From a virus: a DNA stretch of 64,000 bases. This document shows, piece by piece, positions 5,434 through 64,000 of this stretch (positions within the stretch are counted from its first letter, which is position 1; every line of letters starts with the position of its first letter). The translations under genes were made by a program, and so were the position numbers. Under the pieces are notes generated by a model that saw nothing but the letters and a program-made list of their open reading frames with translations, ran no database searches and had not been told where the DNA came from. The DNA is taken from UHGV virus genome UHGV-0054069. One strand, 5' to 3'.

Positions 5434-6540
5434 ATGGCATTAACTAATTCTGAAAAAAGCAGATTTTTCCTTGCTGACCTGACTGGTGAAGTCCAGTCTA
5501 TCCCAAATACTTACGGTTATATTTCCGGTTTGGGACTGTTCCGTTCTGCTCCACAGACTCAAACTACTTTCCTGATGGACTTGACAGATTGGGATATCAG
5601 CTTGCTTGATGCTGTAGACCGCACTAGTCGTAAAGCTGAAACAAGTGCGCCTGAACGTGTTAAGCAGATTAGCTTCCCAATGATGTACTTCAAGGAAGTT
5701 GAAAGCATCACTCCTGATGAAATTCAGGGTGTACGTCAGCCAGGCACTGCAAATGAACTGACTACTGAAGCAGTTGTACGTGCTAAGAAGCTGATGAAGA
5801 TTCGTACCAAGTTCGATATTACTCGTGAGTTCTTGTTCATGCAAGCCCTGAAGGGTAAAGTAATTGACGCTAACGGTGTTCTGTACGCAGACCTGTACAA
5901 GCAGTTCGATGTAACTAAGAAGACTATCTACTTCGACCTTGACAACCCGAACTCTGATATCGATGCGCACATTGAAGACCTGCGTATGCACATGGAAGAC
6001 GAAGCTAAGACAGGTACTGTAATTAACGGTGAAGAAATTAACATCGTTGTTGACAGAACTTTCTTCAGCAAACTTACCAAGCATCCGAAGATTCGTGACG
6101 CATACCTTGCACAGCAGACTCCTCTGGCTTGGCAGCAGATTACTGGTTCTCTAAGAACTGGTGGTTCTGATGGTGTTCAGGCTCATATGAACACATTCTA
6201 CTACGGTGGTGTTAAGTTTGTCCAGTACAACGGTAAGTTCAAAGACAAGCGTAACAAGACTCACACTCTGGTGAGCATTGACGGTGTGTCTGATGTTAAT
6301 ATTGGTGTAGGTCACGCTTTCCCTAACGTTGCAATGCTGGGTGAAGCAAACAACATCTTTGAAGTGGCTTATGCGCCATGTCCTAAGATGGGTTACGCAA
6401 ATACTCTTGGTCAGGAACTGTACGTATTCGAATATGAAAAAGACCGTGACGAAGGTATTGACTTCGAAGCTCACTCTTACATGCTTCCATACTGCACACG
6501 TCCTCAGTTACTGGTTGACGTTCGTTCAGACGCTGCTTAA
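5434..6540 (+). CDS. major capsid protein (lambda gpE-like)
   Basis: 368 aa ORF after protease and decoration genes; strong codon usage (many highly expressed-type codons); lambda-like head gene order. Confidence 0.65.
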   Translation: MALTNSEKSRFFLADLTGEVQSIPNTYGYISGLGLFRSAPQTQTTFLMDLTDWDISLLDAVDRTSRKAETSAPERVKQISFPMMYFKEVESITPDEIQGVRQPGTANELTTEAVVRAKKLMKIRTKFDITREFLFMQALKGKVIDANGVLYADLYKQFDVTKKTIYFDLDNPNSDIDAHIEDLRMHMEDEAKTGTVINGEEINIVVDRTFFSKLTKHPKIRDAYLAQQTPLAWQQITGSLRTGGSDGVQAHMNTFYYGGVKFVQYNGKFKDKRNKTHTLVSIDGVSDVNIGVGHAFPNVAMLGEANNIFEVAYAPCPKMGYANTLGQELYVFEYEKDRDEGIDFEAHSYMLPYCTRPQLLVDVRSDAA

Positions 6541-7891: not shown

Positions 7892-8465
7892 AAAGGGGAT
7901 TGTTAGAACTTTGGTAGATGTTATCGGTCACCGTTTAGCAAGAGATAAGAATAACAGACCAAACGTTATTAGGGCTTACCCTTCTGACAATTCTAATGAC
8001 AAAGGTTTAAAACCTGACCAGCCATTTATTACGGTTTATTGTCAAGATGCTACCACTCCTTATGGATGGGTTCTTGATAAGTTTGTGGAAGACGATGTAG
8101 TTTGTTACAGAATTGCTTTTCAGATTCCAGTATTAATTACCGTAAATGGTAAAGGTGCTCACAGTATTATGCTGGAGCTAAAACAAAGATTAGAGATGAG
8201 TACGACAAGAGATTTATTAGCTCAAGAGACAGGTGCTTCAGTACTTGACACAGGGGCTATCCCAAATGACTACACTTATCTCAACACAGACTTTGAAAAT
8301 TCTGCACCTCTTGTTGTAACCCTTGTAAAAAATTCAGTATTAAAAGATGAACATGGGAGTATTATTGAACATGTCATTGTGGATGGTGAATTGGTTTACG
8401 AGGAAGGACAGGAGCCACCAGAATATACTATCCATCTAGATGTAGACTCCAAAGGGGTAAAATAA
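7866..8465 (+). CDS. hypothetical tail completion protein
   Basis: 199 aa ORF preceding putative sheath gene. Confidence 0.4.
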   Translation: MQLETAELEKGIVRTLVDVIGHRLARDKNNRPNVIRAYPSDNSNDKGLKPDQPFITVYCQDATTPYGWVLDKFVEDDVVCYRIAFQIPVLITVNGKGAHSIMLELKQRLEMSTTRDLLAQETGASVLDTGAIPNDYTYLNTDFENSAPLVVTLVKNSVLKDEHGSIIEHVIVDGELVYEEGQEPPEYTIHLDVDSKGVK

Positions 8466-30204: not shown

Positions 30205-32904
30205 TTAGTGGACTTCAAGCCACGATTTACCAACCTTACCAGTACCCGTTACCAAAGTATCCTTCTTCAGTCCCAAGTTTTTAGAAGCTTGACCATAATA
30301 CCAGTCAGTTACTGCCTTAACTTCTGCTGTCATGCTTTCTGGACATTCCCAGCTTGTTTCGTCGTGGTAAGCACAAAGTAAACGAGCACCGATAGCTGGC
30401 TTACGACCATTTAGTTTCATCAAACCTTCATCAATCATACGACGACAAGCAAGGTTTATTGCTTCATTCTGAACTTGTGCTTCTGAACCCATCAACAGAT
30501 AGTTCAAGAGTTTGTGTGGAGATTTACACCACAACCACGCCCCAGCAACCTGAACAAATCCACCTTTAGCAATTGCAGCAGTTTTACCAAAGACCTCTTC
30601 AAGAGCTTTCTTAGTTGCTTTAAAGTCAGCTTCTAAGTTATCAATCAGTTTCTTAATCTTCGGCAAACGAACAAAGTAAGTCTGCTTAGTCAATGCACCT
30701 TCTTGAGTAGTTGAAGCTTTGATGGTCTTAGCAAACTTCTCATCACCCGCACCGAACAGCAGTGCATAGATACCGTTTTTAGCTTTTTTACGACCCTTAC
30801 TAATCTCGTGAAGAAGATTCTCATCCTGAGTCATACGACAAGTCAAGATATCCTGCTCATCATTCAAGCTGAAGTAAATACTGTTCAGTGTGTGAGCATC
30901 AGTGCCTGAATAGACTACGTACAAGTCGTTTTCAGAGTCATAACGCAGATACTTGTCAACTTCTGGGTTAAGGTATTCGTCGAAGTGTTTGCAGTAATAA
31001 CGACCATCTTCTTGACGAATAAACTCAATTTCTTCCTTACCTTCTGTTACTGCTTTGGTGAACTCTTTATCACCCATAAAGTTACACAGTAACACAAGCT
31101 GTGCAGAGTTCATATCAACGGATACTACGTTGGTTCCTTCTTCACAAATCCAGACTGCCCTCATTGGTTCCCCGTAAACAGCAGCCCCAGAAGGTACGTT
31201 CACAATACCATACTGTGTCATACGACCAGTTGAAGTACCAAACACCATTGCACCAGCACTCAAGCGACCATCTGGACGAATCTGGTTTAACCAACCTTTC
31301 TCGTCATCTTTTGAGTTCTCAATAGTTCTACGTCGGTGCATCAAAGTATAGTACTTCGCAATCTTTTGTCCAAGTTCACCTTCAATGGTGTCATAAGAAG
31401 ATTCAGTAAGTTTAGGTGAAGTACGAATCAAGCAAGGCTCAAGCAAATCTGTGTACTTCCTAACAGACCAGTTATGCTCAATGTAATGAACCCCTTCATG
31501 CTCAATGTAGTTCAATCCACAACGTTCAACCATCTCATCCCACTTAGGATGTTTACGAATCATCTTCTTATTATCTTTGAAGCGACATACCTTGATTGGA
31601 CGGTTATCAGAATCCTTTTTGTAGTTCCAATCATCAGGAATCCAGCCAACAGATTTCAAGTATTCCTTCACCACTGCAACCTGAGTCATACGTGAAACTT
31701 CAAACTCAATTGGTGTATAAGGTGCATCAACAAGACCTGTGTAACGGCTTGACTCCATTTCAAAGTGATTTACTACGTGGTTATTGTAGTACTTCACAGT
31801 TTTAACTGTCTTAACTGGCTTCCAATCCTTACACTTCTTGCCAGCCTTAGCATTCAACTCATTGCAGATTGCACGAGCATCTTTCATTGCTACAAAACCT
31901 TCCCTGTACTCTTCACCAGTGACAGTGTTAGTTGGAGTGTAGCAATTACGTTTCTCAATGTTGAAAATCTTTGTAGTTGGTTTCCCATATGGCTTGATAG
32001 GGTACGTCTTCAGTTCCCCTTCACGCATCTGCTCACGATACTTTGTCTTTGGATACTTTGTGATACGTTTCAAACCATCTACATGACCAAATGTTTCAAC
32101 ATACTCATTCCATGCCTTGGCAAACTCTTCACCAGTTACTTTACCTTTCGTCTTAATAGTCGGAGGTAAGAACGGTTCAACTTCAGAGGCTAACTCAGAA
32201 GTCATCTTATCCAGTTCTTCTACACAGGACTTCATAAGGTCAATGTTAGCTTTCCAACCATTAATAGCTTGTTGACTCATCCAGAAAGAAGTCTCTTTAG
32301 CTCGCATGTAGGTTTCGTAAGTATCTACACCACACTTCTTAAGCTTAAGGTATTCATTATCCATAGCACGTTTTGCTTTGGCGTTGATTCGAATATCCTC
32401 AACAACACGGTTAAGAATATCAGCGTTCCACACACCCCACTCTTCAATCTCTGGTTTACGAACACCAACACGAGCACCCCATGCAGCCAAGCCATGAGCA
32501 CCTTTGTAACCTTTTGGTGTAGGTCTATCCATCCACTGCACACGAGATTGTATAAGTGAATCCTGAAAGAAGTCACTCCAAGGTTTACACTTAGGATTAT
32601 CAAAGTTCCACAGGTCAGGTGCAATATGGTTGAACACCCACCAGTCATAACCAAGACCATTGTGGATACAAAGGCGTTTGGCTTTCAATGCAAACTCCAC
32701 ACCTTCACGCAAACCACCTTTGATGTATTTTGTATACTTGTGACCAAGGATAGGCTCATCAGTGAAAACCCACACAGCAGGTTCATCACTATCATCTTTG
32801 TAATCTGCGAATGCCATAACGTGAGCTTTTGTAAACTCAAGCAGCAACCCGTCAGTTTCTGTATCACCAACCAAATGTAAGTTTTCAAAATCTACATTGT
32901 TCAT
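30205..32904 (-). CDS. DNA polymerase, family A, with 3'-5' exonuclease domain
   Basis: Exo I motif DTETDGL near N-terminus; pol motif B-like K..IYALLFGAG and motif C-like YHDE near C-terminus; 899 aa. Confidence 0.85.
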   Translation of the reverse strand: MNNVDFENLHLVGDTETDGLLLEFTKAHVMAFADYKDDSDEPAVWVFTDEPILGHKYTKYIKGGLREGVEFALKAKRLCIHNGLGYDWWVFNHIAPDLWNFDNPKCKPWSDFFQDSLIQSRVQWMDRPTPKGYKGAHGLAAWGARVGVRKPEIEEWGVWNADILNRVVEDIRINAKAKRAMDNEYLKLKKCGVDTYETYMRAKETSFWMSQQAINGWKANIDLMKSCVEELDKMTSELASEVEPFLPPTIKTKGKVTGEEFAKAWNEYVETFGHVDGLKRITKYPKTKYREQMREGELKTYPIKPYGKPTTKIFNIEKRNCYTPTNTVTGEEYREGFVAMKDARAICNELNAKAGKKCKDWKPVKTVKTVKYYNNHVVNHFEMESSRYTGLVDAPYTPIEFEVSRMTQVAVVKEYLKSVGWIPDDWNYKKDSDNRPIKVCRFKDNKKMIRKHPKWDEMVERCGLNYIEHEGVHYIEHNWSVRKYTDLLEPCLIRTSPKLTESSYDTIEGELGQKIAKYYTLMHRRRTIENSKDDEKGWLNQIRPDGRLSAGAMVFGTSTGRMTQYGIVNVPSGAAVYGEPMRAVWICEEGTNVVSVDMNSAQLVLLCNFMGDKEFTKAVTEGKEEIEFIRQEDGRYYCKHFDEYLNPEVDKYLRYDSENDLYVVYSGTDAHTLNSIYFSLNDEQDILTCRMTQDENLLHEISKGRKKAKNGIYALLFGAGDEKFAKTIKASTTQEGALTKQTYFVRLPKIKKLIDNLEADFKATKKALEEVFGKTAAIAKGGFVQVAGAWLWCKSPHKLLNYLLMGSEAQVQNEAINLACRRMIDEGLMKLNGRKPAIGARLLCAYHDETSWECPESMTAEVKAVTDWYYGQASKNLGLKKDTLVTGTGKVGKSWLEVH

Positions 32905-32994: not shown

Positions 32995-33163
32995 TTTGCG
33001 GAGTGGGTTTTATCTTAATAGACTCTCTTTACAGGTTAACTATACAGATTCTTTAAAACCCTTAAAAGATTTTTAATAGCCTTTTAAAAGCTTTAAAGTT
33101 ATACGTATAGAATACGTAAAGATAAGAGATTAAAATCTTTATAGAAACTTAGTAGAGGCAATT

Positions 33164-33586
33164 ATGCAGAGGATGTACATTCACCCAGATATACAAAACT
33201 TCATTGATGCTTTAGAGAAACTTGAAAGGCTTGACTTAGAAGCACAGAAGGAATATGCTTTCCATCATCGACGTATGGTTGATGTGCAGCATGAGATAGA
33301 GTTGTCAGAAGGGTACGACGATAAGATGAAGTGTTCAGTCTTTGAGCACATGAAAGAGATATCTTCAGAAAGACGTAAAGCAAAAGATACTATCTTTTTG
33401 ATAGATACCTTAAAAAATAAGTTGCAAAATGGAACGGATTTAGATAGTCTATCACAACTGCTTCAGGATGCAGAGAATACATGGGACAGGAATTACTTCC
33501 CAAGGTCTGAAAAAGGACTTGACTTCTCTTCACAAGAAAGCTTAAGATTATCACGACTAACTATTAACAAAATGAGAGAGAATTAA
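33164..33586 (+). CDS. hypothetical protein
   Basis: 140 aa ORF, first + strand gene after divergent region. Confidence 0.45.
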   Translation: MQRMYIHPDIQNFIDALEKLERLDLEAQKEYAFHHRRMVDVQHEIELSEGYDDKMKCSVFEHMKEISSERRKAKDTIFLIDTLKNKLQNGTDLDSLSQLLQDAENTWDRNYFPRSEKGLDFSSQESLRLSRLTINKMREN

Positions 33587-33587
33587 T

Positions 33588-34391
33588 ATGACTACTGTAA
33601 ATGAAATGCTGTCCTCAAAAGGTATTGATAGTAACTTTATGCTCAATACAATTGAAAGTCTTGCTATTGTAATGCGTAGCAACACATTCAGTTCCAAGGT
33701 AATGCCTGAATCATATCAGGTTAATGGAGATATCTCTGATGAGTCAGCGTTTCGCTCACAAGTTAAACTCCTTCTAAGTGACCGTAAACTCGCTCTGGCA
33801 TCTGTAGCGGTTGGTGTAGATGCCTTTGCTGGTTATATCTTTGATAACATGCAGACTGGTGACTTTAAAGTTCTTTCTGAGGAAGAGAAAGAAGGAATCC
33901 TTAACTTCTCTGAAGATGCTACCTTTGAGCTGATTATCAACTCAATTGCAAGTGTTATGGCTGTTCTTGAGAAGCGTGTTCAAGATAAACTTCCACGCTA
34001 TGAACAACTTGATTGGGGATTCGTAGATATCTTTGAACGAGTGCAGGAGATGGTGACCCTTACTAGTGAGCAACTTAAAGAGGTTGTTGAGCGTGAAGCT
34101 GAACATGGCATTGATGAGATTCAGGTTAAACTTACTGCATTGGTTCCATCAATCATCACTGTAATGGGTATCCACGCTCTGTTTGAAGTCGCTCAACTGA
34201 TTGATGCACCTATTGAGTTTGTTGAACAGATTGCTGGTGATGTAAGTGGTGAAGCACTACGTGAAGTCATTATGCAGACTGGTGCAGCAGTACTCCAAGA
34301 GAAAATTGCTATCCACTTCGGTGATGAGTTTGTTGAGACTCTTCAGGCTATCTCTGAAAAAGAAAAACTGGACTCTAACCAGATTCACTAA
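33588..34391 (+). CDS. hypothetical protein
   Basis: 267 aa acidic ORF. Confidence 0.45.
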   Translation: MTTVNEMLSSKGIDSNFMLNTIESLAIVMRSNTFSSKVMPESYQVNGDISDESAFRSQVKLLLSDRKLALASVAVGVDAFAGYIFDNMQTGDFKVLSEEEKEGILNFSEDATFELIINSIASVMAVLEKRVQDKLPRYEQLDWGFVDIFERVQEMVTLTSEQLKEVVEREAEHGIDEIQVKLTALVPSIITVMGIHALFEVAQLIDAPIEFVEQIAGDVSGEALREVIMQTGAAVLQEKIAIHFGDEFVETLQAISEKEKLDSNQIH

Positions 34392-34402
34392 TACAATTGT
34401 TT

Positions 34403-34434
34403 CCCCAAAGCCTCCTTAATTGGGGGCTTTTTAT
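34403..34434 (+). terminator. candidate rho-independent terminator
   Basis: CCCCAA ... TTGGGG stem followed by GCTTTTTATT. Confidence 0.35.
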
Positions 34435-34449
34435 TATGAGAGGTATATT

Positions 34450-35187
34450 ATGAAGAGTATTATTGCATTCACTGGTAAGGCACGTTCTGGTAAAGACACT
34501 TCCTGCACCATCGTTAAGAACCACTTGATTGAAGAAGGCTACGCTGTTAAAGTCTTTGCGTTCGCAGATAATCTTAAAGCAACTGCTGGAGATATCTTTG
34601 ACTTAGATTGGCAAGACTTGTATGGTGACACCAAAGAGAAACCTCAGAAATTTGACTTAACTTTCTCAAATGTGCATAGTAACGTTAAATATTCTTTCTT
34701 CAGACACTTGAAAGATAAAGGTATACATAATGATGAGAAACTTTGTGGTGAAATCACAGACAGACTTATCAAAGAACTGAAGAAGGTTGCTAAACCGACT
34801 CTCTTAACAAGGATGGGTTTCAGGAATGAATACATCTTCTCTTCACGACAAATCCAACAAGTTTGGGGTAGTGAGGTTATTCGTAAAATCCTTGGGGAGC
34901 GTTTCTGGATTATTGACCTTGCAGAAAGAATGGAAAAGTTTTATGGTGAAATAGAAAGAAAAGGCCACATTCCAGTAATCCTAATTTGTGATTTGAGGTT
35001 TGATATTGAAGCGGAATTTCTCAAGAGCTATAATAGTCAAATCATCGAAGTGACCAGAAATGGTATTGAGCAGGTTGCTTCACATCATTCTGAAAAAGGT
35101 ATCTCTCCACGATTCGAAAGAGATTTTATTCAGAATAACGGAACAATAGATGAGCTTGCAGATAAATTGAAAGTCATCATAAAATAG
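34450..35187 (+). CDS. deoxynucleoside monophosphate kinase (P-loop)
   Basis: N-terminal P-loop IAFTGKARSGKDT resembling phage dNMP kinases; start at MKSIIA with GAGAGG RBS. Confidence 0.6.
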   Translation: MKSIIAFTGKARSGKDTSCTIVKNHLIEEGYAVKVFAFADNLKATAGDIFDLDWQDLYGDTKEKPQKFDLTFSNVHSNVKYSFFRHLKDKGIHNDEKLCGEITDRLIKELKKVAKPTLLTRMGFRNEYIFSSRQIQQVWGSEVIRKILGERFWIIDLAERMEKFYGEIERKGHIPVILICDLRFDIEAEFLKSYNSQIIEVTRNGIEQVASHHSEKGISPRFERDFIQNNGTIDELADKLKVIIK

Positions 35188-35194
35188 AGAGATA

Positions 35195-35392
35195 TTGAAG
35201 ATGAGAGATAATAACTTGAAAGTTGTTGACCACCGTAGTGTAGCACTCTCATCTCTTTCTAAAGAAGTAATGATGGAGCGACTTGAAAGGGTCGCTTCTC
35301 GTCGGAAAGAGATTGCAGAAGAGATTCATGAATTAGATAAGATTGAAAACGGTCTTAAAGAAGAATTGCGTCGTAGAGGTGTCAATGGCTAA
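35195..35392 (+). CDS. hypothetical coiled-coil protein
   Basis: 65 aa ORF overlapping primase start. Confidence 0.4.
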   Translation: MKMRDNNLKVVDHRSVALSSLSKEVMMERLERVASRRKEIAEEIHELDKIENGLKEELRRRGVNG

Positions 35393-37373
35393 ACCAAGAA
35401 AATTAAAAGAAGCTGGTCAGTTTGTAGGTCACTGTGCTTGTCCAAAATGTGGTTCTTCAGATGCAGGTTCGATTTATCATCATGACGATGATTCATATTC
35501 AATGACTTGCTTTAGTTGTGGCAAGGGATTTCCAGAGTGGGATTTTGATAAAGGTCAAATTGTGAGCACTATGTCTACAGGTTCTGATAGTAAAAATCGT
35601 AAGTTTCGTGGTATGGATTTAGATGATGTTAAAGAAAACCTCGAAGCAATGGATTTAAAAGACAGGAAGATTCCTGCAAAGGTTTTAGAACGTCTTGGTA
35701 TTAAAGTTGACGTAGATGAGAATGGAGATATTGACGCTCATTTCTATCCAACTTATAAGAAAGATGAAGATGGGAAATTGAAGCATGTTGGTTATCGAGT
35801 TCGTCACAAATACCCTGATGACCACCCCAAAGAACAGCTTCGTGGTAAGTTAAAAGACTTCTCAGGTGGTGTAGGTGATATTAAAGGTGAACTGGCGATG
35901 TTCGGTTCATGGATTGCACCTGAAGGTGGTAATCGCTTATTCATCTGGGAAGGTGAGATGGAATGTGCTACAGCAGTCTATATGACTTCTTTGGCAATTA
36001 AGGATAAGTCACGTAGAAAGAACTACTGTCACGTATCTGTCCCATCTGGTGCAAACGTTAAGTCTATCAAGGAGAACTATCAGTACATCACATCCTTTGA
36101 TGAGATTTACCTTTGCTTCGACAACGATGAAGCAGGTGCCAAGGTAACTAAGGAAGCTGCTGGTATCCTTCCTATTGAAAAGGTTCGACTGTTCCAGTAC
36201 CCTGAAGGTGTCAAAGACCTTAGCGAGTGGTGGACTAAATTCTTTAAAGACAAAGATACAGTCTTAGAAGGGTTTAAGCAGAGAATCTATAATGCACCTC
36301 GTTACTGCCCTGCTGGTATTAAGAACTTTGCAGACGGTTTCGAAGCAATGAAGAATCGTGGTCAGATTCCTTTGATTCCTTTTCCAGAATCTTTCGGGGA
36401 TTTGAACAAGTTAACTTATGGTGGTTATGGGTTAGGCGAAATCACTACACTGGCTGCACCGTCATCTGTTGGTAAATCTGCCTATACTCGTGAAATGATT
36501 TATACAGCATGGAAAGATACTGAGTACAACATTGGTGTAATTCCAGTGGAGGACACTTATGAAGAACTTATGGAGATGCTCTGTGCAATCCACCTTAGTA
36601 AGCAGATTTCAGAGATTCCTTACGATGAACGTAATTGGGATGAATTGAAGGTAGCACACGCAGAACTGTCTAAAGGTCGCCGTATCCACATCGTAGACCA
36701 CCAAGGGGCAATTGACCAAGATAACCTGCTGGAGTTTGTTGACTACCTTGTTAACAGTTTAGACTGTAAGATTATTATTCTTGACCCTATTACGTTGGCT
36801 CTGTCACGTTCTGATACGGATGAAGAGGAAGTATTGTCTGAACTATTGCGTCGTTGCAAACGCTACCAGTATGCACAGGTAAACGTCTGTCACGTTCGTA
36901 AAAGTGCAGGTGGTCAGAAGGCTAACTCTGAAGGTGGTGATATCTCCGAAGAGGATATCAAAGGTTCTGGTGCATACTTCCAGATTTCCATGAACAATAT
37001 TTTGTTAATGCGTAACAAGGTTGACCCAGACCCTGTTAAGAAAAACTTAACAAAAATCAAGTTAACTAAATGTCGTCGTCATGGTAAATCCACTGGTATT
37101 GCTGGTCACACTTGGTATAACCCAGAGACAGGCCGTCTTATCAAGGCTGCTGGTTGTGGTGTTGATATTGATGGTGCAGCAGAGAATATCCGTCAGCAGT
37201 TTGGTATTGGTAATGCCGAAGACCATTATGATGACACTATGCCACACTATGAAGATGAAGTATTTGACCGTGACACTGGAGAGTTGTATACTCAAGAACA
37301 ACGTCAGAGTTCTACAATCCCTCCTGTAATCAATGAGGATGGTGATGATGACTGCCCGTTTGAAACTGACTGA
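35385..37373 (+). CDS. DNA primase-helicase (T7 gp4-like)
   Basis: N-terminal Cys4 zinc-binding motif (CPKCGSSD...CFSCGKGF), central primase region, DnaB-type Walker A AAPSSVGKSAYT; start at MAKPRK. Confidence 0.75.
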   Translation: MAKPRKLKEAGQFVGHCACPKCGSSDAGSIYHHDDDSYSMTCFSCGKGFPEWDFDKGQIVSTMSTGSDSKNRKFRGMDLDDVKENLEAMDLKDRKIPAKVLERLGIKVDVDENGDIDAHFYPTYKKDEDGKLKHVGYRVRHKYPDDHPKEQLRGKLKDFSGGVGDIKGELAMFGSWIAPEGGNRLFIWEGEMECATAVYMTSLAIKDKSRRKNYCHVSVPSGANVKSIKENYQYITSFDEIYLCFDNDEAGAKVTKEAAGILPIEKVRLFQYPEGVKDLSEWWTKFFKDKDTVLEGFKQRIYNAPRYCPAGIKNFADGFEAMKNRGQIPLIPFPESFGDLNKLTYGGYGLGEITTLAAPSSVGKSAYTREMIYTAWKDTEYNIGVIPVEDTYEELMEMLCAIHLSKQISEIPYDERNWDELKVAHAELSKGRRIHIVDHQGAIDQDNLLEFVDYLVNSLDCKIIILDPITLALSRSDTDEEEVLSELLRRCKRYQYAQVNVCHVRKSAGGQKANSEGGDISEEDIKGSGAYFQISMNNILLMRNKVDPDPVKKNLTKIKLTKCRRHGKSTGIAGHTWYNPETGRLIKAAGCGVDIDGAAENIRQQFGIGNAEDHYDDTMPHYEDEVFDRDTGELYTQEQRQSSTIPPVINEDGDDDCPFETD

Positions 37374-58319: not shown

Positions 58320-58346
58320 AAGGGCTGCTTCGGCAGCCTTTTTTAT
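58320..58346 (+). terminator. rho-independent terminator
   Basis: GGGCTGC-TTCG-GCAGCC followed by TTTTTTATTT. Confidence 0.65.
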
Positions 58347-58374
58347 TTGAAAAATGTGTAGGATGGTGTATAAT
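58347..58374 (+). promoter_or_regulatory. sigma70-type promoter
   Basis: TTGAAA-N16-TATAAT immediately after terminator. Confidence 0.5.
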
Positions 58375-58405
58375 TGTCTGCATGTTTAACAAAATAGGAG
58401 ACCCA

Positions 58406-60111: not shown

Positions 60112-60137
60112 TAGAGGCTCCTTCGGGAGCCTTTTTC
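60112..60137 (+). terminator. rho-independent terminator
   Basis: GAGGCTCC-TTCG-GGAGCC followed by TTTTTC. Confidence 0.65.
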
Positions 60138-60155
60138 ATTTCTAGGAGAAGTTAA

Positions 60156-61415: not shown

Positions 61416-61611
61416 AAAGACACGACAAATTATAGCATCTGGTATCTATGTAGGGAGAAGTGAAGTAATCCCGTTTACAGAGGTTTTCTCACATAAAGAA
61501 ACCTTCAAATATTATTTGGATGAATGCTTCTTACGTTCAAACGTTGAAAGTTTTAAACGGACTTTCACCAGTAATCGTACAGTCACTCAAGAGGTAATCT
61601 TAAATGGCTGA
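61390..61611 (+). CDS. hypothetical protein
   Basis: 73 aa ORF. Confidence 0.4.
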   Translation: MKVLIVRNKKTRQIIASGIYVGRSEVIPFTEVFSHKETFKYYLDECFLRSNVESFKRTFTSNRTVTQEVILNG

Positions 61612-61804
61612 TTTCTGCAAGAGTTGTTCTATTGAAATGTTTGGACGTGATACAGGAGACTTGAAAGGTCTTATCACTGAAGATGATTTCAAAGCTGGTT
61701 ATGCTATGCCAACACTCTGTGAAGGTTGTGGTGGAATCTGGGTAGACCATGAAGGGCAACGTGTAAAACCTTCTGAAGATAAAGAATCATGGGAGAAATG
61801 GTAA
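61604..61804 (+). CDS. zinc-ribbon protein
   Basis: CKSC ... CEGCGG Cys4 arrangement; 66 aa; stop abuts macrodomain gene start. Confidence 0.45.
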   Translation: MADFCKSCSIEMFGRDTGDLKGLITEDDFKAGYAMPTLCEGCGGIWVDHEGQRVKPSEDKESWEKW

Positions 61805-61805
61805 C

Positions 61806-62600
61806 ATGGGCATTGTAAAAATCATTAAAGGTGATATCTTTGAAGCCTTTGATAACCAGAAGTTTGATATCATTGGTCACGGATGCAACTGCATGAACTT
61901 GATGGGTGCAGGGATTGCAGCGACGATTGCAAAACGTTATCCAAAAGCTTATGAGACTGACGCTGAAGTTTATGAGACAGTTGGTGGTGAGAACCATAAA
62001 CCTGTACATCTTATGCTTGGCAATATCTCTGTAGCACGTTTCAAGCAGGGTCGAATTGCTAACCTATACACTCAGGTTATCACTGGTAAAGATGCACGTT
62101 ACAATGCCTTAGAAGCAGCTTTGCAGCGTCTTAATAACTACTGCAAAGTAAACCAGCTTAAGAAGGTTGGTCTTCCAATGATTTGTGCAGGGATTGGTGG
62201 TTTGGATATCTTTGCAGTTACTTCAATCATTAACCAGACAATGAAAGATGTAGACGTTTACCTTTATGTCTATGAAGAAACAATGCACAGACGACTAACC
62301 AATAACATAGTTGGTTGGAACAACTACAGTGAACCTCAACACTTTGATGGTGTCGCAGTTGTGAAGGATAATCAAGTTACACTACGGGTAAAACGGAAGG
62401 GTAAGGTGCATAAAAGTAACCCTCCGGTTGAGAAGTACTCTCTGAGTAACGCTCAAGTTACCCACCCGTTACACGACCACTGCTTGAGAGCAGTAACATT
62501 TGGGGACAATGCAAGTGTTTACCTTCTTGCACAAGACCATGAAGAAGCTGATAAGATTATCTCTGATAAACGTTTTAGCTTTGTTGAAGCACGTAACTAA
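61806..62600 (+). CDS. macrodomain protein (TARG1/DarG-like ADP-ribose hydrolase fold) with unknown C-terminal domain
   Basis: KGDIF, HGCNCMNLMGAGIA, catalytic-position Lys (RFKQG) and Asp in PMICAGIGGLD align with the TARG1 macrodomain pattern; 264 aa. Confidence 0.7.
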   Translation: MGIVKIIKGDIFEAFDNQKFDIIGHGCNCMNLMGAGIAATIAKRYPKAYETDAEVYETVGGENHKPVHLMLGNISVARFKQGRIANLYTQVITGKDARYNALEAALQRLNNYCKVNQLKKVGLPMICAGIGGLDIFAVTSIINQTMKDVDVYLYVYEETMHRRLTNNIVGWNNYSEPQHFDGVAVVKDNQVTLRVKRKGKVHKSNPPVEKYSLSNAQVTHPLHDHCLRAVTFGDNASVYLLAQDHEEADKIISDKRFSFVEARN

Positions 62601-62666
62601 GTAACTTTGTAAAGTATTCACAATAGAGTAAGCCTTTCTTGTTCTTGCAAACACAAGGTAAGGAGG

Positions 62667-62854
62667 GCTTTTTCATTTCAAAATCGTGCAGATAAAGGTC
62701 TATAAAGAAATCTGTAGAGTGAAATCAAAGTCAACTCCAAAGGGAAAATTCATTTTCAATTTGTGCAGGTGAACTCCAAAGAGCTTTTTCATTTCAAAAT
62801 TGTGCAGAGAAAAATCAGGTCGGGCAAGAAAATTCATTTTCAATTTGTGCAGGT
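62667..62854. repeat. array of four direct repeats of two alternating types in noncoding DNA
   Basis: Type A 26-mers at 62667-62692 and 62783-62808 (1 mismatch); type B identical 27-mers at 62744-62770 and 62828-62854; AACTCCAAAG at 62733 and 62772. Confidence 0.7.
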
Positions 62855-62870
62855 AGCCAGATATAGCCAG

Positions 62871-62906
62871 CCATCCCCACCACCCCCTCTTACTCCCCTT
62901 CCTCCC
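62871..62906 (+). repeat. G-free polypyrimidine (C-rich) tract
   Basis: 36 nt with no G on + strand, about two-thirds C, in an AT-rich genome. Confidence 0.6.
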
Positions 62907-63027
62907 AAAAGTCAAGAGAAAAATTTGTAGCGGATTAAAAAATAATTCTTGACTAGTTTTCTGTTTAGTGCTATGTGTACGCGCCCGTTTCATTCACAAC
63001 ATGCCAAAAATATTTTTAAAAATTTGC

Positions 63028-63056
63028 TTGACTCTAAAAAACCAGTCTTATAGTAT
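63028..63056 (+). promoter_or_regulatory. sigma70-type promoter
   Basis: TTGACT-N17-TAGTAT upstream of small-ORF cassette. Confidence 0.4.
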
Positions 63057-63080
63057 TTGCATCAACGGGAAGCAATCCCA

Positions 63081-63101
63081 ACAATCCTAAACTGGAGATT
63101 C
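63081..63101 (+). repeat. repeated 21-bp translation-initiation leader (second copy 63552-63572)
   Basis: ACAATCCTAAACTGGAGATTC identical at both sites, each just upstream of an ATG (63107, 63577). Confidence 0.6.
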
Positions 63102-63106
63102 AAAAA

Positions 63107-63313
63107 ATGTTATATCAACGGGAATTAATGATTGTCGATAATAACAAAACTAAAAAACGTCGCTTCTTTATGTTAATCTGTGACGTGTGGCAAAGAATAT
63201 CTGAAAAGGATTATGACAAGTATGTTGATACATCAATCAGGTCGGATTGTTATTTGACAAATCACACAAGACAGTTTACAAGACATACAGCAGTTTACTA
63301 CTATGACGTTTAA
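63107..63313 (+). CDS. hypothetical protein
   Basis: 68 aa ORF downstream of repeated leader. Confidence 0.4.
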   Translation: MLYQRELMIVDNNKTKKRRFFMLICDVWQRISEKDYDKYVDTSIRSDCYLTNHTRQFTRHTAVYYYDV

Positions 63314-63325
63314 AAGGGCTTGACA

Positions 63326-63487
63326 ATGATTAAAGAAGGCAATGTAATAAGCTACAAAGATTTAGACGGATACCCAAAAATTGGGAAAGTTTTCTACCTT
63401 TACAAGTCAGTGATGGATAATGACTGCATAGCCCTAACAAATGGCGACAAGATAACCATGAAAGATTTTATAAAAATTATTTCATAA
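63326..63487 (+). CDS. small hypothetical protein (53 aa)
   Basis: ATG at 63326 with upstream AAGGG; ends at repeated 3' element; below track size cutoff. Confidence 0.3.
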   Translation: MIKEGNVISYKDLDGYPKIGKVFYLYKSVMDNDCIALTNGDKITMKDFIKIIS

Positions 63488-63507
63488 AGTGCTTTACATG
63501 GGGTTTA
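63485..63507 (+). repeat. repeated 23-bp 3' element (second copy 63961-63983)
   Basis: TAAAGTGCTTTACATGGGGTTTA identical at both sites, each overlapping or abutting a stop codon. Confidence 0.6.
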
Positions 63508-63576
63508 AAAAGGTAGTATCTTAAGCCCCAGATAAAGAGCTTTACCACTAAACAATCCTAAACTGGAGATTCTAAA

Positions 63577-63960
63577 ATGAAAAAATATTATATGCCAAAA
63601 TTCATCAAGAAAGAAAACTTTCGTGATGCTCTGGAAAAATACATGAATGAGCAGTTCAAAGGTAAATTAATTGTTGTCCACGCATACAATTTTAAGTATG
63701 ATGTAAATGGAAACAAGACAAATCACTATACCGCTACGATGCTGGATGGTACACTCTCAGGTGAAAAAGCCATTATCAATGCACTGGCTGGACGTGGTAA
63801 AACGTTGATACGTTGTGATAAACGCCGATATCAGGGCAGTTCTTATGGTTATGAGGATGCAGTCTATCACCTTGATAACATGGGTTACAATGTCGAAAAA
63901 GCTGGCGTGTCTCAAATGATTGGTAGTGATGGATATGTGACAATTTTTAAAATTAACTAA
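63577..63960 (+). CDS. hypothetical protein
   Basis: 127 aa ORF flanked by repeated leader and repeated 3' element. Confidence 0.45.
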   Translation: MKKYYMPKFIKKENFRDALEKYMNEQFKGKLIVVHAYNFKYDVNGNKTNHYTATMLDGTLSGEKAIINALAGRGKTLIRCDKRRYQGSSYGYEDAVYHLDNMGYNVEKAGVSQMIGSDGYVTIFKIN

Positions 63961-64000
63961 TAAAGTGCTTTACATGGGGTTTATAGTTCAATAAGATAAG

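Follow-up and report, generated by a model that had tools for sequence, protein, structure and literature searches.

An array of direct repeats conserved at one non-coding locus of the Felix-O1-like phages, a candidate set of protein-binding sites

Introduction

Several described systems resemble the locus analyzed here. Iteron origins of replication include lambda ori, which has four sites of 18-19 bp for the O protein, and the origins of plasmids F, P1, R6K, and pPS10. The primary origin of phage T7 lies at the boundary between early and middle genes and is primed by transcription. The p4 sites of phi29, the operators and enhancer of Mu, and the ribbon-helix-helix arrays of the ParR and omega types combine several close sites for one small protein with divergent promoters, and their A/T-run subsites may occur in either polarity, like the repeats of the present array. 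Here, we describe four direct repeats near the right edge of a stretch of 64,000 nucleotides of the virus genome UHGV-0054069 (this whole stretch is called the window below). The array is real, occupies a fixed non-coding spot in every Felix-O1-like lineage sampled, and was previously undescribed.

Few phages are used as widely as Felix O1 and its relatives for diagnostics, biocontrol, and therapy of Salmonella and E. coli, and phage Bas63 of the BASEL collection and phage SUSP1 are models in functional genomics. The Felix O1 genome paper stated that the temporal regulation of the phage was unknown (PMC3185647). Neither that paper, nor the PhageMaP study of Bas63, nor the CRISPRi-ART study of SUSP1 mentions the array.

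Four direct repeats in a single non-coding island

The repeats lie in a non-coding island of 506 bp (62601-63106), close to the 500 bp given in an earlier note made from the sequence alone. There are four plus-strand copies of a 20-nt core, TTCATTTYMAAWTYGTGCAG, starting at 62672, 62749, 62788, and 62833, and each core is part of a unit of 27 nt. Two subtypes alternate: R1 (62666-62692, core 62672-62691) and R3 (62782-62808, core 62788-62807) contain a run of T, R2 (62743-62769, core 62749-62768) and R4 (62827-62853, core 62833-62852) a run of A. Within R2, GAAAATTCATTTTC is a short palindrome. The earlier note had listed the subtypes as separate words, namely 26-mers at 62667-62692 and 62783-62808 and 27-mers at 62744-62770 and 62828-62854. 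We confirmed that the former differ by one base (C/T) and that the latter are identical. The relatedness that the note saw between the two also holds, as they share the core, except that the optional extra T in its consensus is unnecessary since the alignment is free of gaps.

The core is specific to this spot. Allowing up to 3 mismatches, the 64-kb window has these four sites and no others, against a chance expectation of 0.19, and none of 100 shuffles preserving dinucleotide composition produced four matches. With a position weight matrix (PWM) built from 53 repeat instances, the four copies score 36-39 (37.2, 38.7, 37.3, and 38.4 from R1 to R4), whereas the maximum in shuffled sequences is 17. 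The best score elsewhere is 18.5 in the whole genome and about 23 once the rest of Shigella phage ESh21 and the whole of phage Moogle are included. The array thus occurs once per genome. We found no second copy elsewhere in the genome, and the matches that seemed to place it in two places per record are off-diagonal matches inside the same array. An orphan site at 58336 was rejected as a relative of the array, its PWM score of 15.8 being within the range of the shuffles. This site is a terminator tail followed by an ordinary promoter: at 58320-58380 on the plus strand, downstream of rIIB, the terminator GGGCTGCTTCGGCAGCC-T6 immediately precedes a strong host-type promoter (TTGAAA-16-TATAAT). 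The weak resemblance of this combined element to the repeats gives a score of 23.3 in Moogle.

The gaps between the 27-nt units measure 50, 12, and 18 nt and are themselves partly repetitive. The plus-strand sequence AACTCCAAAG precedes R2 (62733-62742) and R3 (62772-62781); as the earlier note had noticed, it recurs at these two positions, which are its sole sites in the window, and 3 of 100 shuffles reach two matches. Spacer 1 contains a second short motif, read from the sequence as two tandem TCTRTARAGNRAAA-like copies on the plus strand (62698-62724), and the same pair is found in spacer 1 of Felix O1 and past the last repeat in Hafnia phage Zyzzx. Given the two repeat subtypes and the non-uniform, partly repeated gaps, we rejected an array like those of clustered regularly interspaced short palindromic repeats (CRISPR).

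Distribution and sequence variation in related phages

The window belongs to a Mooglevirus genome (Ounavirinae). The island is 99.8% identical to that of ESh21 and 75-81% identical to those of more than 200 Felix-O1-like phages. In every lineage sampled, we found the same order of a macro-domain gene, its terminator, three to four repeats in the same orientation, and an early promoter. The invariable neighbours of the array are the macro-gene terminator on one side and, on the other, the strong host-type promoter that comes first among those of the small early genes. The phages bearing it include Felix O1 and wV8, Moogle, Erwinia phage M7 and Salmonella phage SB18 (both Kolesnikvirus), Hafnia phage Zyzzx, and L173, a divergent metagenomic contig of 88 kb. 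The macro-domain gene is upstream of the array in every lineage examined (Felix O1, Moogle, M7, Zyzzx, L173, and L085), and phages of the L085 type keep the array despite a macro gene with a different C-terminal half.

Conservation is concentrated in the repeats. When Moogle-like sequences are compared with Felix-like ones, the repeats are 82-89% identical (89%, 86%, 85%, and 82% from R1 to R4), while spacer 1, spacer 3, and the segment after R4 are 37-65% identical and the last 46 nt of the macro gene 50%. Spacer 2, which has 12 nt and contains AACTCCAAAG, reaches 84%. In the terminator, the 3' arm is 98% identical between the genera and the 5' arm with the loop 48%. A block with back-to-back TTGACT hexamers to the right of the array is 89% identical, against 75% for the region of the strong early promoter, and these paired -35 elements are the best-conserved part of the island after the repeats. 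In comparisons with Kolesnikvirus and the Hafnia phage, the array is among the few DNA stretches within 5 kb that can be aligned at all (E = 1e-13). It is hence more conserved than most of the surrounding coding DNA, which is strong evidence for a function, and the absence of conservation in relatives, named in the earlier note as grounds for dismissing the array, is contradicted by these data.

Around the repeats, the locus is more fluid. The distances from start to start are 77/39/45 nt in the window, 73/39/45 in Felix O1, 37/37/39 in Kolesnikvirus, 43/53 in the Hafnia phage, and 36/148/38 in L173. In L085 and L208, R2 has been lost by fusion of R2 and R3, i.e., by recombination between repeats, and the segments flanking the repeats are mosaic. 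On the reverse complement of L173, the four repeats (about 5600-5780) are split two and two and are followed by an AT-rich run of TTAACA-type heptamers, which resemble the terminal-repeat region of Felixounavirus; this suggests that the array may adjoin the terminal non-coding region in the L173 lineage.

Searches for the array outside the subfamily returned little. A scan of the viral collection with a two-copy pattern gave mostly coding repeats of tail fibres, plus true Ounavirinae loci, and a loose scan of the same collection with a single copy gave chance matches. The metagenome scan found further Felix-like copies and added nothing else. One look-alike locus (L217) was rejected, as it is a eukaryotic satellite adjoining a gene for a G-protein-coupled receptor. 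The GenBank record of Staphylococcus phage SA1 (GU169904.1) has a Felix-O1-like island at 128681-129196, with 80% identity, which is probably a contamination or a mis-assembly.

Structure of the repeat unit

The unit of about 27 bp consists of R-G, a 5-bp run of A or T, TCATTT, 6-7 variable bases, GTGC, and a lineage-specific flank of 2-4 nt. Its information content peaks at positions 2, 8-13, and 21-24, and the TCATTT and GTGC blocks, which are about one helical turn apart, give a bipartite conservation with a free middle. Three conserved patches separated by about one helical turn are as expected for a protein that reads one face of the duplex. The run to the left of TCATTT is AAAA(A/T) or TTTTT depending on the copy, and it differs between lineages. 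These two runs are the same narrow-groove A-tract on opposite strands, and they are unrelated as RNA; their interchange thus points to duplex DNA, and not RNA, as the form in which the repeats are recognized.

The right side of the unit varies in concert. All copies of a given lineage have the same 3' flank: GTGCAGGT in Felix and Moogle types, GTGCATAG in Kolesnikvirus and L173, and GTGCTTAT in the Hafnia phage, so that GTGC is followed by CAGGT, CATAG, and CTTAT, respectively. Considering that the hosts are all Enterobacterales, which share DnaA, IHF, and Fis, this concerted change suggests a co-evolving partner encoded by the phage. Taken with the uniqueness of the locus, these features make the array, probably, a set of cis-acting duplex-DNA sites for a phage-encoded protein.

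Coding potential, RNA structure, and genome ends

Several relatives have a gene annotated across the array ('gp14', gene 13, Moogle115). We rejected a protein-coding gene, since no reading frame is kept across lineages. The spacings of the repeats disrupt the frame in Moogle, Kolesnikvirus, Hafnia, and L173, and, in the cores, the positions that would be synonymous or third in a codon are invariant while two whole 'codons' in the middle of the repeat vary freely. The open reading frames (ORFs) annotated across the array are on either strand and are mutually inconsistent: ON528731 (25140-25655), NC_027293 (CPT_Moogle115), EU877232 (gene 13), JF461087 (gp14), and MK759884 (QHI00560). These 'hypothetical proteins' are almost certainly spurious. 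The same applies to the minus-strand ORF at 62700-62993, which is not conserved and which the earlier note had rightly set aside as an artefact of the repeats.

There is no sign of a structured RNA. We obtained no match to Rfam in the window, and the folding energy of the two strands shows no excess relative to shuffles (z-scores of 0.01 and 0.72). None of the 35 pairs predicted by RNAalifold on 15 aligned sequences had a compensatory change, and the sole helix supported by RNAalifold in the alignment of the island is the terminator. We also rejected an antisense regulator of translation starts of early genes. Inverted repeats reveal a slight likeness of the array repeats to the conserved GGAGATTC-AAAATG start regions in reverse complement; this likeness is absent in Kolesnikvirus and Hafnia, and a genome-wide scan of duplex energies with each repeat gave scattered matches in coding regions, with no enrichment at start regions. 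These findings, along with the uniqueness of the array and its higher conservation relative to the spacers and the coding DNA, support the part of the earlier note that proposed a cis-acting binding array; the note had named both an origin and a regulator-binding array, and our data fit either of the two.

The repeats are not copies of host DNA, and host factors are unlikely to account for them. The sequence of the array has no match in E. coli genomes and plasmids. Likenesses to sites for IHF, Fis, ArgR, and Fur, assessed by eye, fall in the variable middle or fit one repeat subtype only.

A packaging or terminal site was rejected, because the exact terminal repeat is 6.5-7 kb to the right of the array. 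In Felixounavirus, these exact repeats have been shown to measure 581-608 bp (PMC4837284, PMC11737134). The genome ends of UAB_Phi87 were mapped experimentally and have exact terminal repeats of about 0.6 kb (PMC4837284), and the terminal repeat of phage D4 was determined by PhageTerm (PMC11737134). In D4, the repeat is perfect over 581 bp and, going right from the array, its right-hand copy begins after 6.6 kb; in ESh21, the homologous sequence is reached after 6.5 kb. The genome ends are in a large non-coding gap past the right edge of the window (L212 5905-6494, equivalent to ESh21 31904-32493; L215 1-581; L216 8860-9440; L214 31645-32214). The repeat of D4 begins with GCCCCCTTAACATTT, is 76-79% conserved in ESh21 and Moogle, and is dense in short TTGTTA(A/G)/TTAACA and CTATA(G/A)AG motifs.

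Promoters, replication genes, and neighbouring genes

To the left of the array, the macro-domain ('phosphatase') gene (61806-62600, plus strand; Pfam Macro E = 3.9e-7; phrog_335) is followed by an intrinsic terminator (62632-62673, plus strand; stem 62632-62668), whose T-tract, starting at 62669, doubles as the left end of R1. Its counterpart in Felix O1 is terminator t13 (PMC3185647).

To the right, a C-rich tract (62871-62906) is followed by the AT-rich conserved block (62907-62954) with the two TTGACT hexamers (62915-62910 on the minus strand and 62949-62954 on the plus strand). The minus-strand hexamer belongs to a candidate leftward promoter (62887-62915), in which 17 nt separate TTGACT (62915-62910) from TAAGAG (62892-62887). 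This promoter was read from the sequence, its -10 element being too weak for the promoter scan, and its transcripts would cross the array in antisense relative to the flanking genes. The homologous site is a good promoter in Kolesnikvirus (TTGACG-18-TATACT, 10 of 12 matches), reads TTGACT-17-TAGCCT in the Felix 'variant 2' loci, and has no -10 element in the Hafnia phage. The plus-strand hexamer is part of a weak rightward promoter-like site (TTGACT-17-TATGTG, 62949-62977), with a conserved -35 and a poor -10 in all Felix and Moogle sequences. Further right comes an AT-rich upstream element with a strong host-type early promoter (63004-63056, plus strand; TTGACT at 63028-63033, TAGTAT ending at 63056), identified by the promoter scan and conserved in the alignment.

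The earlier note had paired the array with an adjacent polypyrimidine tract, which does not stand. The C-rich tract is broken by A's, is 51% identical between the genera, and is replaced by a different G-rich filler in 12 of 30 Felix-like loci. Its minus strand (62875-62906, GGGAGGAAGGGGAGTAAGAGGGGGTGGTGGGG) is the only canonical G-quadruplex motif of the window, and any such motif is found in 17 of 200 shuffles. It overlaps the spacer and the -10 of the candidate leftward promoter. Since the tract is replaced in those 12 loci, it is not essential to the conserved function.

Published data show that the region is transcribed. In Felix O1, 'ORF14' (8042-8254), which spans R2-R4, gave a product in reverse transcription PCR (RT-PCR) that was maximal at 25 min, while ORFs 13 and 16 peaked at 5 min (PMC3185647); this RT-PCR was not strand-specific.

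The replisome encoded in the window is of the T7 type, with a primase-helicase (Toprim and DnaB_C domains, 35343-37373) and a family A polymerase (30205-32904). Between these blocks, at 33000-35300, the GC skew changes sign where the polymerase block on the minus strand and the plus-strand block of the primase-helicase diverge. The authors of the Felix O1 study guessed that early transcription starts in the intergenic region between polymerase and primase-helicase (PMC3185647). We regard 33000-35300 as an alternative candidate for the origin.

The right-terminal cluster of small early genes opens with a gene (63107-63313, plus strand, from the gene calls) that encodes 68 aa and belongs to phrog_5293, of unknown function. 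The first gene downstream varies by lineage and is thus not tied to the array. In the run of early genes to the right, each small gene has its own promoter and ribosome-binding cassette. These cassettes (window 63004-64000 and L212 1-5500), which precede the genes, are near-identical to one another, e.g., 63468-63507 and 63944-63983, or 63080-63106 and 63551-63577, and they consist of a promoter (GTGCTTTACATGGGGTTTA...), a hairpin, and AACAATCCTAAACTGGAGATTC-AAAATG as the ribosome-binding region. In this, they are similar to the mobile promoter/stem-loop cassettes by which T4-type phages shuffle their early genes, and the gene content of the cluster varies among close relatives.

On the other side, directly upstream of the macro-domain gene and overlapping it by translational coupling, is a gene (61604-61804, plus strand) for a protein of 66 aa with a CxxC...CxxC pattern and a weak zinc-ribbon match (TFIIB-type, E = 0.015, under the Pfam cut-off). 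It is kept in Felix-like phages as 'ORF12, phage conserved protein', and it could bind nucleic acid or RNA polymerase. In the macro-domain protein, the macro domain covers residues 25-141 and the C-terminal half, of about 110 residues, has no Pfam match; this half is unrelated in sequence in the L085-type phages (L085 3561-4340) and absent in L173.

Interpretation

If the repeats are binding sites, the function that we tentatively favour is an iteron-like element of a replication origin, which we consider possible and no more than that. A phage-encoded, sequence-specific protein would bind the four repeats as iteron-like duplex sites. With all four copies occupied, a nucleoprotein complex would assemble where the right-terminal module of early genes has its inner border, flanked by the macro-operon terminator on one side and by the conserved back-to-back pair of promoter-like elements on the other. 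Such a complex might mark or activate the origin. Transcription from the adjacent promoters, the leftward one running straight into the array, would open the AT-rich or G/C-asymmetric DNA, and the opened DNA could be the entry point for the T7-like primase-helicase and the family A polymerase.

Two considerations lead to this reading. By base rate, unique loci with about four direct repeats of 20 bp beside AT-rich DNA and divergent promoters are mostly origins, and the context here is of this kind: a unique non-coding locus with AT-rich DNA, divergent promoter-like sites, and, next to them, the only G-quadruplex motif of the window. In addition, T7, which has a like replisome and like genome ends, has its primary origin at the early-gene boundary, where it is fired by transcription.

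Other observations weigh against an origin or against the phage-encoded binder proposed for it. T7-type replisomes need no iterons. The spacing of the repeats is irregular and not helically phased, here (77/39/45) as in the relatives. The drop in G+C at 62950-63150 (0.30-0.36, versus about 0.39 in the genome) is modest, and the stretch doubles as upstream promoter elements. Felixounaviruses other than the Felix O1 type lack the G-quadruplex motif, which the Felix O1 and Moogle types have. The GC skew tracks the direction of transcription and gives no origin signal. None of the nine neighbouring proteins has a DNA-binding, initiator, or Rep domain, and all belong to PHROG families of unknown function. 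Gene conversion among copies could alone yield the sameness of the flanks within each lineage. Finally, our literature search found no replication mapping for any member of Ounavirinae, and no report of origins or iterons for the subfamily.

A close rival, nearly as likely as the origin, is an array of protein-binding sites that controls transcription. It could be a roadblock or insulator, reinforcing the terminator of the macro operon and halting leftward transcripts, or an upstream activating or repressing site acting on the two conserved promoter-like elements that have a good -35 and a poor -10. In both forms, it would help to time the switch from early to middle expression. All the evidence for duplex DNA and for a phage factor applies equally to this explanation. 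The layout is also in its favour, as R1 is fused to the T-tract of a terminator whose 3' arm is almost invariant, and the array precedes TTGACT-17-TATGTG by 95-285 bp and, read leftward, comes straight after the candidate leftward promoter, next to the -35 pair whose conservation follows that of the repeats. The late peak of the 'ORF14' RNA, compared with its neighbours, fits a change in timing, but the lack of strand specificity of that assay limits its value. On the other hand, the other early promoters of the cluster, e.g., those of the repeated TTTACA-N18-TATCTT cassettes, lack such sites. Moreover, most phage operators are palindromic and overlap their promoters, whereas these repeats are direct and distant from the promoters.

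Less probable is a non-coding RNA, read leftward from the TTGACT promoter, in which CUGCAC-N6-AAAUGA would be exposed four times in single-stranded form; it could titrate an RNA-binding protein, as a decoy or sponge, or serve as a regulator. The leftward promoter is strong in Kolesnikvirus and plausible elsewhere, the region is transcribed, the orientation of the repeats relative to the flanking genes is constant, and the lack of structure is compatible with single-stranded motifs for protein binding. Yet, the interchange of A5 and T5 would change such an RNA wholly, and the promoter lacks a -10 in Hafnia. There is no Rfam family and no covariation, and the genome-wide duplex scan singled out no class of targets, including the early start regions. 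For these reasons, we find this explanation unlikely.

The repeats might instead be relics without function, either duplicated terminator tails homogenised by gene conversion or recombination linkers between mosaic modules. Indeed, CTTTTTCATTT is a recurrent terminator tail (Felix t5 and t13, window 60130-60142, and the orphan site at 58336), recombination between repeats is documented by the R2/R3 fusions in L085 and L208, and the flanking segments are mosaic. However, four copies persist where the neighbouring genes no longer align as DNA, the spacers diverge and the cores do not, and bipartite conservation with a free middle is unexpected from gene conversion alone, which renders relics improbable.

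We give about the same low credit to the idea that the array and a co-evolving phage protein together represent a boundary element of a new kind, distinct from operators and from classical origins, that would separate the terminal 'host-takeover' segment of about 8% from the rest of the genome, either as an entry pause, and thus as a myovirus counterpart to the two-step transfer of T5, or as a combined barrier to transcription and replication. The narrower version, in which the array is a pause or stop during genome entry, or another boundary between a first-entering terminal 'host-takeover' segment and the rest, comparable to T5, is slightly more doubtful still. From the array to the right end there are 6.5-7.2 kb (about 8%), and it borders the small-gene cluster on the inside; the genes of this cluster are read in the direction of the right end and have strong host-type promoters of their own. 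In T5, the segment of the first step covers 7.9% of the genome and ends in a repeat-rich non-coding region with DnaA boxes (bioRxiv 10.1101/866236). By eye, the GTGC box and its flank match a DnaA box at 8 of 9 positions in Kolesnikvirus. In Felix and Moogle types, the match is 5-7 of 9, and we roughly estimate that a match of 8 of 9 arises by chance in about 10% of 27-nt units. Two-step entry has never been reported for the subfamily, and the array, in contrast to the T5 region, is not part of the terminal repeat.

A cluster of phage-specific middle or late promoters, which the earlier note had put forward, is very improbable: the 'ORF14' RNA appears at middle time, a TA dinucleotide often follows GTGC(A/T), and single copies resemble weak host-type promoters (e.g., TTTTCA-17-TATATT in R1 of L186), but the repeats share no conserved -35/-10 hexamers with the spacing of a promoter, the motif is found at one locus and heads no gene there or elsewhere, and neither an RNA polymerase nor a known sigma factor is encoded by the phage (PMC3185647).

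Whether the array serves an origin or transcription control, it is a short and sharply defined cis element present throughout the subfamily, and hence a handle on the start of replication and the timing of transcription in these phages. In practice, the spurious 'hypothetical protein' ORFs should be removed from several database records, and phage engineering should meanwhile avoid disrupting the array.

Comparison with known systems

The regulator-site arrays of phi29 p4, Mu, ParR, and omega differ from the present case in that their proteins and sites are known, whereas both the protein and the effect on transcription are hypothetical here.

The injection stop region of T5 (bioRxiv 10.1101/866236) resembles the array in several respects. 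It is repeat-rich, non-coding, present throughout its family, and positioned at the inner border of a terminal early block of about 8% that is read endwards. It differs in being inside a terminal repeat of 10 kb and in having inverted repeats, palindromes, and eight DnaA boxes, whereas the array has four simple direct repeats outside a terminal repeat of 0.6 kb, and its likeness to DnaA boxes is seen in some genera only.

Origins primed by transcription, i.e., the primary origin of T7 (promoters 1.1A and 1.1B with an AT-rich region), oriF and oriG of T4, and the origin of ColE1, have promoters directed into AT-rich or strand-asymmetric DNA, as the promoter-like sites here would be. With T7, the likeness extends to the short exact terminal repeats, the primase-helicase, the family A polymerase, and the position at the early-gene boundary. 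A further similarity, in this genus, is the G-rich non-template DNA downstream of the candidate leftward promoter. These origins function without iterons, and here the promoters would be of the host type, the leftward one is weak in this genome, and the G-rich tract is unconserved.

The iteron origins come closest in architecture. The array falls within their range of three to seven direct repeats of about 20 bp, and it shares with them a single orientation of the repeats, a unique non-coding or control locus, neighbouring DNA that is here modestly AT-rich and has promoter-like sites, a repeat sequence that co-varies with the lineage of the replicon, and a bipartite repeat conservation compatible with a two-headed binder. 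Unlike them, it has no Rep- or O-type initiator among its nine neighbours, its spacing is irregular and unphased, its first repeat is fused to the tail of a terminator, its sites accept an A/T run of either polarity, and its replisome is T7-like. We did not file the array in the iteron family, because regular phasing, one of the defining features, was tested and not found; a cognate initiator and mapped initiation would be two others. From its sequence features, the array is most likely a multi-site protein-binding array like the known kinds, and would as such be an entry point to the control of replication and timing in the Felix-O1-like phages.

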